Origin: Candidatus Jordarchaeia archaeon | GTDB lineage: Archaea > Asgardarchaeota > Jordiarchaeia > Jordiarchaeales > Jordiarchaeaceae | DNA length: 18,719 nt | Direction: 5' to 3' | Assembly: GCA_029856435.1 (NCBI GenBank) | Contig: JAHQXB010000149.1 | Coordinates: 1 to 18,719 of the forward strand | Shown: positions 14,411 through 15,276 of the stretch, piece by piece | Layout of the letters: each line of letters starts with the position of its first letter | Position numbering within the stretch: the stretch's first letter is position 1 | The notes under the pieces: model-generated | What the model saw: only the letters and a program-made list of their open reading frames with translations | What the model was told of the DNA's origin: nothing | The model's database searches: none | Program-made: the position numbers and the translations under genes

Positions 14411-14518
14411 GCGGCTGTAGTCTAGCCTGGTTTAGGACCCAGGCCTTCCAAGCCTGTTACCCGGGTTCGAATGAAAAAGGAAGGAAGCTTCTTTCCGAAA
14501 TTCCCGGCAGCCGCACCA
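14411..14518 (+). tRNA. tRNA-Gly(TCC) with a 30-nt intron at 59/60; CCA encoded
   Basis: Acceptor GCGGCTG/CAGCCGC, D-stem GTCT/GGAC, anticodon stem CAGGC/GCCTG with TCC at 14447-14449, T-stem CCGGG/CCCGG. Spliced length is 78 nt. Confidence 0.95.
14472..14501 (+). other. tRNA-Gly intron, position 59/60, strict BHB
   Basis: Outer helix GGG/CCC, central helix TTCG/CGAA, bulges AA^T and AT^T, inner helix GAAA/TTTC. Confidence 0.92.
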
Positions 14519-14663
14519 AACCTACTTTTACTAAGCATAAGAATAGGAGTAAAGACAGAAATGTTTCAAGTAGGGCCTAGATCTGATTGAAAATAAACTG
14601 TTAATGAACTTGTAGAAAAAACAAAAATAGGGATGTTATGTGGTGCCGTCGGCCGGATTTGAA

Positions 14664-14693
14664 GTCGCCTTCTGCCAGGGACTCTGACAGCAT
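14664..14693 (-). other. tRNA-Phe intron 3 (30 nt), position 53/54, relaxed BHB
   Basis: Central helix CGCT/GGCG, bulges GG^A and AC^T, inner stem CTGTCAG/CTGGCAG. Confidence 0.88.
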
Positions 14694-14716
14694 CCAGCGA
14701 CAATCGGATCTTCAGT

Positions 14717-14747
14717 TTCGCCTTCCGTCAGAAAACTCTGACAGCAT
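14717..14747 (-). other. tRNA-Phe intron 2 (31 nt), position 30/31, BHB
   Basis: Outer helix AG/CT, central helix CGTC/GGCG, bulges GG^A and AA^A, inner stem CTGTCAGA/TCTGACGG. Confidence 0.88.
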
Positions 14748-14769
14748 CCGACGCTCTCCCGGGCTAAGC

Positions 14770-14793
14770 TTGTCGCTATTTTTTGCGAATAGT
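14770..14793 (-). other. tRNA-Phe intron 1 (24 nt), position 9/10, relaxed BHB
   Basis: Central helix GTCG (exon 4-7)/CGAC, bulges TA^A and AA^G, inner stem CTATT/AATAG, no outer helix. Confidence 0.85.
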
Positions 14794-14848
14794 TACGACG
14801 GCACCTGGGAGAATTTGGGCGACGGCAAAAACAAGTTTTTTTCACAAC

Positions 14849-14862: not shown

Positions 14863-14877
14863 GTTTTTTTCTTGGGT

Positions 14878-14985
14878 TGGTGGGCGAGGCAGGATTGTCA
14901 GATATAGTGTCCAGAGCACTATACCTTTTGAACCTGCGACCTCCGCCACGTCAAGGCGGTGTCATGGCCGCTAGACTACTCGCCC
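14878..14985 (-). tRNA. tRNA-Val(GAC) with a 32-nt intron at 59/60; CCA encoded
   Basis: Acceptor GGGCGAG/CTCGCCC, anticodon stem CCGCC/GGCGG with loop TTGACGT, T-stem GCAGG/CCTGC. Spliced length is 76 nt. Confidence 0.94.
14895..14926 (-). other. tRNA-Val intron, position 59/60, BHB with a U-C mismatch in the central helix
   Basis: Central helix TTCA/TGAC, bulges AA^A and AA^T, 9-bp inner stem GGTATAGTG/CACTATATC. Confidence 0.9.
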
Positions 14986-15139: not shown

Positions 15140-15166
15140 GTTTCACCTTTTGAGTTTTCTCTTGGT
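15140..15166 (-). other. tRNA-Ala T-loop intron (27 nt), position 59/60, strict BHB
   Basis: Outer helix GGG/CCC, central helix TTCA/TGAA, bulges AA^A and AC^T, inner CC/GG plus a GAG-AAAA-CTC hairpin. Confidence 0.92.
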
Positions 15167-15203
15167 TTTGAACCCGCGGCCTCCTGGCTGCAAACCAGGC
15201 GCT

Positions 15204-15225
15204 CTTGGCTTCCTTTTTTGGGAAT
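15204..15225 (-). other. tRNA-Ala D-arm intron (22 nt), best register 22/23, relaxed BHB
   Basis: Central helix TGGA/GCCA (3 bp plus A-G), bulges AG^A twice, inner stem TTCC/GGAA. A flanking AAGA repeat makes the register formally ambiguous, but the mature sequence is the same. Confidence 0.82.
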
Positions 15226-15276
15226 CTTCCACTGAGCTATGAGCCCACCTATCCATGTTAGAAGTGTTGGGTGGTA

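Follow-up and report, generated by a model that had tools for sequence, protein, structure and literature searches.

The 24 nt at positions 14770 to 14793 of the window (the whole 18,719-nt stretch of DNA analysed here, from a Candidatus Jordarchaeia archaeon) appear to be a real intron of a tRNA-Phe gene, located between bases 9 and 10, a junction position that is unusual although it has a precedent, with a splice signal that borrows a strand of the acceptor stem and that is seemingly dependent on the leader of the precursor. In the full explanation that we favour, and to which we give a probability of about 0.6, the insert is a genuine protein-spliced intron of the EndA type and the leader helps its relaxed signal to form. 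The parts of this explanation differ in strength. It is very probable that the intron is real and is spliced to give a 77-nt product; granted a real intron, the balance tips slightly towards assistance by the leader.

Results

A tRNA-Phe(GAA) gene with three introns

Neither ARAGORN nor Rfam found the tRNA-Phe in the raw window, where no tRNA was called. After deletion of 14770-14793 and 14664-14693, ARAGORN called a tRNA-Phe(GAA) with one intron left, and when 14717-14747 was deleted as well, so that all three inserts were gone, it reported an intron-free 77-nt tRNA-Phe(GAA) with a canonical cloverleaf. The arrangement of the gene and of its leader is given in Table 1. A BLAST search with the mature tRNA-Phe returned these exons as the sole match in the 3.54-Mb genome, which is 97.8% complete, and genome-wide only 3 tRNAs were called by ARAGORN and 6 above cut-off by Infernal. 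A single Phe locus in a near-complete genome, together with the few tRNAs called, points to a working gene belonging to an intron-rich tRNA set. Judged on the genome sequence, this locus is the working Phe gene and the host's tRNA genes are nearly all interrupted.

Table 1. Features of the tRNA-Phe(GAA) gene and of its leader (positions in the window)
Feature	Position	Strand	Basis or remark
TATA-like box TTTAATAA	14849..14856	minus	about 23 nt upstream of the leader copy; putative, from its spacing
Leader copy of the 5' acceptor strand, GCCGTCG, at the putative transcription start	14820..14826	minus	
Leader stretch TTCTCCC, complementary to D-loop GGGAGAG (14755-14761)	14807..14813	minus	7 predicted pairs, no covariation
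tRNA-Phe(GAA) gene, encoded CCA, four exons and three introns	14641..14802	minus	ARAGORN on the spliced form, BLAST, orthologues
Exon 1, tRNA bases 1-9 (acceptor 5' strand, U8, A9)	14794..14802	minus	
Central helix, 5' strand: acceptor G4-G7	14796..14799	minus	4/4 pairs with intron CGAC
Intron 1, 24 nt, position 9/10	14770..14793	minus	homology, motif register and presence in 5 genomes
Intron hairpin, inner helix CTATT/AATAG, variable loop	14776..14792	minus	
Central helix, 3' strand: intron CGAC	14772..14775	minus	same as the first four bases of the 3' acceptor strand
Exon 2, bases 10-30	14748..14769	minus	G10 directly 3' of the 3' splice site of intron 1
Intron 2, 31 nt, position 30/31	14717..14747	minus	ARAGORN after removal
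Intron 2 central helix: C25-C28 with GGCG		minus	read from sequence
Exon 3, bases 31-53	14694..14716	minus	
Intron 3, 30 nt, position 53/54, paralogue of intron 2	14664..14693	minus	
Exon 4, T-loop, 3' acceptor strand CGACGGC, A73, CCA	14641..14663	minus	

Position and splice signal of intron 1

In the tRNA-Phe of Atabeyarchaeia-1, of Atabeyarchaeia-2 and of the Asgard genome G040, the acceptor strand, U8, A9 and the D-arm follow one another without interruption; here the same run is broken by 24 nt. These uninterrupted relatives therefore fix the insertion point independently of the splice motif, the one-base ambiguity that is left in the placement being due to an A repeat. We then scanned the registers around this point. 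A 4/4 central helix combined with a 5-bp inner stem was found at 9/10 only, 8/9 and 10/11 failing, and the chance of such a motif at a boundary fixed beforehand was about 1e-4 (20,000 shuffles). An earlier note on this DNA, made from the letters of the sequence, had proposed an endonuclease-type intron at 9/10 with a central helix formed by acceptor G4-G7 and the intron's CGAC, and with a 5-bp inner stem. Its coordinates for the insert were correct, the feature being on the minus strand; both helices were recovered by the register scan, and the uninterrupted relatives, the motif register and the spliced 77-nt tRNA together argue for the intron that it proposed.

The 5' splice site is in a 3-nt bulge, UA^A (U8-A9^A, the caret marking the cut after the second base), which sits between the central helix and the intron's own hairpin. 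According to the accessible text of a review of archaeal introns (PMC4090602), in the canonical geometry bases of the 5' exon pair with the 3' end of the intron and the cut is made after the second bulge base; the order of helix and bulge in intron 1 agrees with it. The 3' site, AA^G10, lies in a loop, and the outer helix scored 0 in the register scan. A strict hBHBh' test was negative because the 3' site has no adjoining outer helix of at least 2 bp. The signal of intron 1 is thus a relaxed HBh'-type motif and not a strict BHB. The letters that the earlier note had given for the two bulges are right, but AA^G is not a true bulge since no helix adjoins it, and the strict BHB implied by that description has to be given up. 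In the fold predicted with the leader, the 3' site falls in a 1x2 or 3x2 internal loop that is followed by pairs between the leader and the D-arm; closure of the signal, if any, would come from this pairing at a distance.

As the splice signal uses the 5' acceptor strand, signal and acceptor stem are mutually exclusive. Moreover, the CGAC of the intron is identical to the start of the 3' acceptor strand, and the intron therefore competes directly with the acceptor stem. No paralogue of intron 1 was found elsewhere in the source genome.

Conservation of intron 1 within the genus

The tRNA-Phe gene is present in five of the six genus members, the sixth assembly being without the locus, and intron 1 is kept in all five. 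It is absent from the Asgard relatives that were compared outside the genus. In the sister family of the order, BLAST gave no match to tRNA-Phe with either the gene or the mature sequence, so that only more distant Asgard genomes set a limit to the time at which the intron was gained. The helix columns are conserved in the five orthologues with only two exceptions: one G-C to G-U change in the central helix, in genome G003, which keeps the pairing, and the loss of the sixth inner pair in the source genome (where the inner helix has 5 bp, against 6 bp in the four others). The remaining differences between species in intron 1 lie within the hairpin loop. Compensatory covariation was not found among the five orthologues because their sequences are too similar; the conservation seems compatible with the helices and neither supports nor refutes the structure. 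A 16-mer spanning the junction of exon 1 and intron 1 matched the Candidatus Freyarchaeota SRVP19_Freyarchaeia-1 chromosome and Jordarchaeia/Freyarchaeota MAGs, the other matches being mostly chance bacterial ones; this assigns the window to that genus of Asgard archaea. Contigs from four runs, two of them labelled metatranscriptomic and probably DNA, carried a relative's unspliced form with no joints, and are uninformative on expression.

Introns 2 and 3 are copies of one another, and the exon words that precede the two insertion points are similar. Within any one genome the two copies are more alike than copies from different genomes, a pattern suggestive of repeated conversion. Breaks in public assemblies fall exactly on these repeats, and this may explain the missing locus in one genus member. 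In the complete Freyarchaeia genome, the tRNA-Phe gene is located at about 1547648-1547842 (G005:C1) and has an extra fourth intron at 59/60.

A copy of the acceptor strand in the leader

Both the leader copy GCCGTCG and the TTCTCCC stretch are invariant in the five species, the exact copy extending to 8 nt. The earlier note had pointed out that its motif requires an open acceptor stem, and predicted folding bears this out: without the leader, the probability of the acceptor stem was about 1 and that of the central helix about 0 in 5/5 Phe orthologues. When the transcript was made to start at the leader copy, the probability of the central helix rose to 0.87-1.0, again in 5/5, with the copy pairing to the 3' acceptor strand at a probability of about 1 and TTCTCCC clamping the D-loop. 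The full copy was needed in these predictions, Phe leaders of 20 nt or less giving a central-helix probability of 0. Shuffled leaders allowed a helix probability of at least 0.5 in 12 of 100 trials, and the folding effect is therefore only moderately specific. In folding of the nascent chain with the leader, the central helix was stable from 50 nt onward. After cleavage, the 5' fragment was predicted to bind the body with -18 kcal/mol when the leader was present and with -10.9 kcal/mol when it was absent; such a tether is important, since departure of the intron otherwise deprives the 9-nt exon of its partner.

As a control, the longest complementarity between leader and 3' end was determined for 39 tRNA genes of the complete Freyarchaeia genome. 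It was 5 nt or less in 35 genes. The other four were Val-TAC (7 nt, a palindrome), tRNA-Sec (9 nt, with a mis-set published 5' boundary), Phe (8 nt) and Thr-CGT (9 nt), and a true leader match of 8-9 nt was thus found among the 39 genes in Phe and Thr-CGT only. The association between leader and intron is supported here by two independent gene lineages only, Phe and Thr.

The match of tRNA-Sec was rejected as a gene-boundary error rather than a leader copy. The published start of this gene (G005:C1:810355-810596) is set too far downstream. The true acceptor strand is probably a 9-nt strand located 27 nt upstream, which can pair perfectly with the 3' end and is followed by extra sequence. For tRNA-Val(TAC) (G005:C1:1698271-1698482), chance is the probable source of the 7-nt match between leader and 3' end, in which the palindrome CGTACG takes part.

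An intron of the same build in tRNA-Thr(CGT)

Supplementary Data 4 of Valentin-Alvarado 2024 (PMC11291895) gives 38 tRNAs for the complete Freyarchaeia genome. tRNA-Phe is absent from these 38, although its gene is flanked by those of Val(GAC) and Gly(TCC), both of which are listed. In the same table the intron of tRNA-Thr(CGT) starts at gene position 9. Reading of the locus and of its orthologues placed this intron at 8/9 and showed that it is present in all six genus members. Its central helix is made of acceptor C3-G6 (bases 3-6) and intron CGAG, and is completed by an inner hairpin; an outer helix joins leader bases -3 to -1 and G1-C2 to G10-A14, and the bulge and loop bases differ between species. 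For the precursor with its leader, the predicted probability of the central helix was about 0.58-0.92 in five of six species, a behaviour like that of the Phe precursor. The Thr intron thus resembles that of tRNA-Phe in belonging to the same genus, in its acceptor-borrowing helix, in its inner hairpin and in a leader complementary to the 3' end, whereas it lies one base earlier and has a proper outer helix. Because of this outer helix the motif is strict, and it was found by tRNAscan-SE.

Processing enzymes

The source genome encodes two full-length EndA paralogues. The alpha-like one has the catalytic alpha subunit of A. pernix as its best match (E = 3e-45) and aligns without gaps through the Crenarchaea-specific loop, with K-P-K at the K44/R46 positions (lysine at both). 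In the A. pernix enzyme, these positions of the specificity loop are those of broad specificity. The genome therefore has what looks like an (alpha-beta)2- or epsilon2-type EndA with a specificity loop, assembly into a heteromer being putative. RNase P RNA is present, as is one rtcB gene (579 bits).

The rtcB gene was itself found to be interrupted by a 30-nt in-frame insert containing a TGA stop (G000:C93:1547-1576, minus strand), between the PD and HQGYG motifs. This insert has a full BHB motif, with a central helix CCCG/CGGG, an inner helix of 4 bp and an outer helix of at least 2 bp, and its removal restores the sequence of the solved RtcB structures. Comparison of the flanks showed that the DNA on either side matches in all six genus members.

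Discussion

How, then, could a splice signal form that excludes the very stem on which the tRNA is built? We propose that the 24-nt leader, whose first part repeats the 5' acceptor strand exactly, would occupy the 3' acceptor strand with this part, while the next stretch, TTCTCCC, would pair with the D-loop GGGAGAG. This pairing would free G4-G7 for the splice signal and would close the signal from outside; it would also keep the 9-nt first exon tethered to the body during cutting and joining. We infer that a broad-specificity EndA of the (alpha-beta)2 type would cut at the sites given above and that RtcB would join the exons. After ligation, the molecule would refold into the cloverleaf, and the leader would then be removed by RNase P. 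More tentatively, and at slightly less than even odds, we speculate that the leader copy serves in cis as a dedicated helper in the recognition, cutting and ligation of introns at the junction of acceptor and D-stem, standing in for the 5' strand so as to hold the 3' end and keep the mini-exon tethered. If this were true, maturation would have a fixed order, with splicing first and RNase P last, and the leader copy would be a precondition for the origin of junction introns.

An alternative that deserves to be weighed against assistance by the leader keeps the spliced intron and leaves the copy uninvolved: the signal would form co-transcriptionally, before the 3' acceptor strand exists, EndA would act then, and the copy would be a neutral duplication or have another role, for example as a promoter-proximal sequence or in RNase P handling. 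Nascent chains folded without the leader lend it some weight, the helix probability being 0.68-0.76 at 34-40 nt and about 0.6 at 130-150 nt, and so does the fact that some shuffled leaders permit the helix. However, between these lengths (50-100 nt) the value falls to 0.02-0.12, at full length it is 0, and the 9-nt exon would be without a stable tether after cutting. Moreover, an exact 8-nt copy is conserved in five species, and a comparable match accompanies only the two junction introns among the 39 genes. A further point on the other side is release. In the energy model the leader-bound fold persists after all introns have been removed and thus seems too stable to be released later; if the leader does act, its release before RNase P must rest on tertiary contacts or proteins. 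All in all we regard an idle leader copy as rather unlikely, and we retain a leader that assists the splicing of intron 1.

Other rivals concern the intron itself. EndA might cut the same intron in the 8/9 register (U8^A ... A^A), the register used in the sister tRNA-Thr. The earlier note was right that 8/9 would give the same product, since the A repeat makes the two identical, and right as well to favour 9/10: in the 8/9 register one of the four central-helix pairs is left and there is no inner helix, which makes this register improbable. It is still less probable that the 24 nt are retained, in a pseudogene or in a tRNA with an extra hairpin between acceptor and D stems, even though a 2026 census preprint (bioRxiv 10.64898/2026.10.13.758758) cautions that not every intervening sequence need be an intron. 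Indeed, this is the sole Phe tRNA locus found in a near-complete genome, its exons are intact and conserved across species, the motif lies exactly at the boundary, and retention of an intron segment resembling the 3' acceptor strand would do harm. Lastly, the upstream GCCGTCG could be the true 5' end, with the 24 nt between the two copies forming a fourth intron. Identical copies would yield the same mature sequence, and the apparent leader match of tRNA-Sec in the complete relative did prove to be, in all probability, the true 5' end; but when the registers between the copies were scanned, neither a 4-bp central helix nor an inner helix was obtained in any of them, and in three of the five species a micro-exon would be left or U8 would be lost. 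The motif being absent in every register, we rejected this fourth intron, which we hold to be hardly credible. A genuine intron at 9/10 remains the preferred reading of the insert.

Freyarchaeia-type genomes are known to carry introns in 92-95% of their tRNA genes, often non-canonical and multiple (PMC11291895). The intron survey has since been extended across 90 Asgard genomes (bioRxiv 10.64898/2026.10.13.758758): tRNA genes of Freyrarchaeaceae have a mean of more than two inserts, many of which are missed by tRNAscan-SE, and these are enriched at BHB boundaries. That census differs from the present analysis in that it starts from genes detected by tRNAscan-SE, classes acceptor-stem and junction inserts as 'other' and does not discuss leaders. 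The accessible text of the review cited above (PMC4090602) describes non-canonical and multiple tRNA introns in Thermoproteales, with relaxed motifs and a two-subunit EndA, and includes an 'extreme' acceptor-stem intron at 3/4. Intron 1 resembles such non-canonical archaeal introns with BHB or HBh' motifs: it is short and protein-spliced, a 4-bp helix joins the 5' exon to the intron's 3' end, the cut follows the second bulge base, the motif is relaxed, the gene has several introns, and the genome has two EndA paralogues with a specificity loop. It differs from them in its 9/10 position, in a helix that uses acceptor bases 4-7 and in the leader copy of that strand. Split and permuted tRNA genes (Nanoarchaeum, Caldivirga, C. 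merolae) offer another parallel, since there too the EndA signal is built, and the pieces are kept joined, by helices of flanking leader or trailer sequence rather than by the tRNA body alone. In those genes, however, one flank pairs with the other, be it across two transcripts or across permuted ends, whereas in tRNA-Phe a leader in cis would replace the gene's own 5' strand and would then be removed by RNase P.

The claim of novelty made in the earlier note is weakened by these comparisons. The published 8/9 intron of tRNA-Thr(CGT), of the same build, means that the position class was already tabulated, though not discussed. As for 9/10 itself, the positions given in the accessible review text run from 20/21 to 59/60, with 3/4 in addition, and neither 8/9 nor 9/10 is named there (PMC4090602); nor was 9/10 found in the searchable literature, in which text search on slashed positions is of limited reach. 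Nor did our literature search return a published account in which an acceptor-strand copy in the leader helps such introns. Three points thus did not turn up in the papers that could be searched: the 9/10 position, this tRNA-Phe gene, which the published table does not list, and such a helping leader copy. An essential tRNA gene has been invisible to ARAGORN and Infernal and absent from the curated table of a complete genome; as a consequence, calls of a 'missing tRNA' in Asgard genomes need care. The junction of acceptor and D-stem can moreover harbour endonuclease-type introns whose splice signal and the tRNA fold are mutually exclusive, a conflict that implies an ordered maturation pathway. 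Should the idea of the assisting leader hold, it would represent a new kind of cis folding helper.

Three further tRNA genes flank tRNA-Phe in the window: Gly(TCC) at 14411-14520 (plus strand), Val(GAC) at 14877-14983 (minus) and an Ala(TGC)-like gene at about 15150-15250 (minus). In none of the three does the leader repeat the acceptor strand. The first two have one T-loop intron each, as judged by ARAGORN after removal, and the third needed two removals. The Val(GAC) of the complete Freyarchaeia genome is listed with no intron (PMC11291895, Supplementary Data 4).
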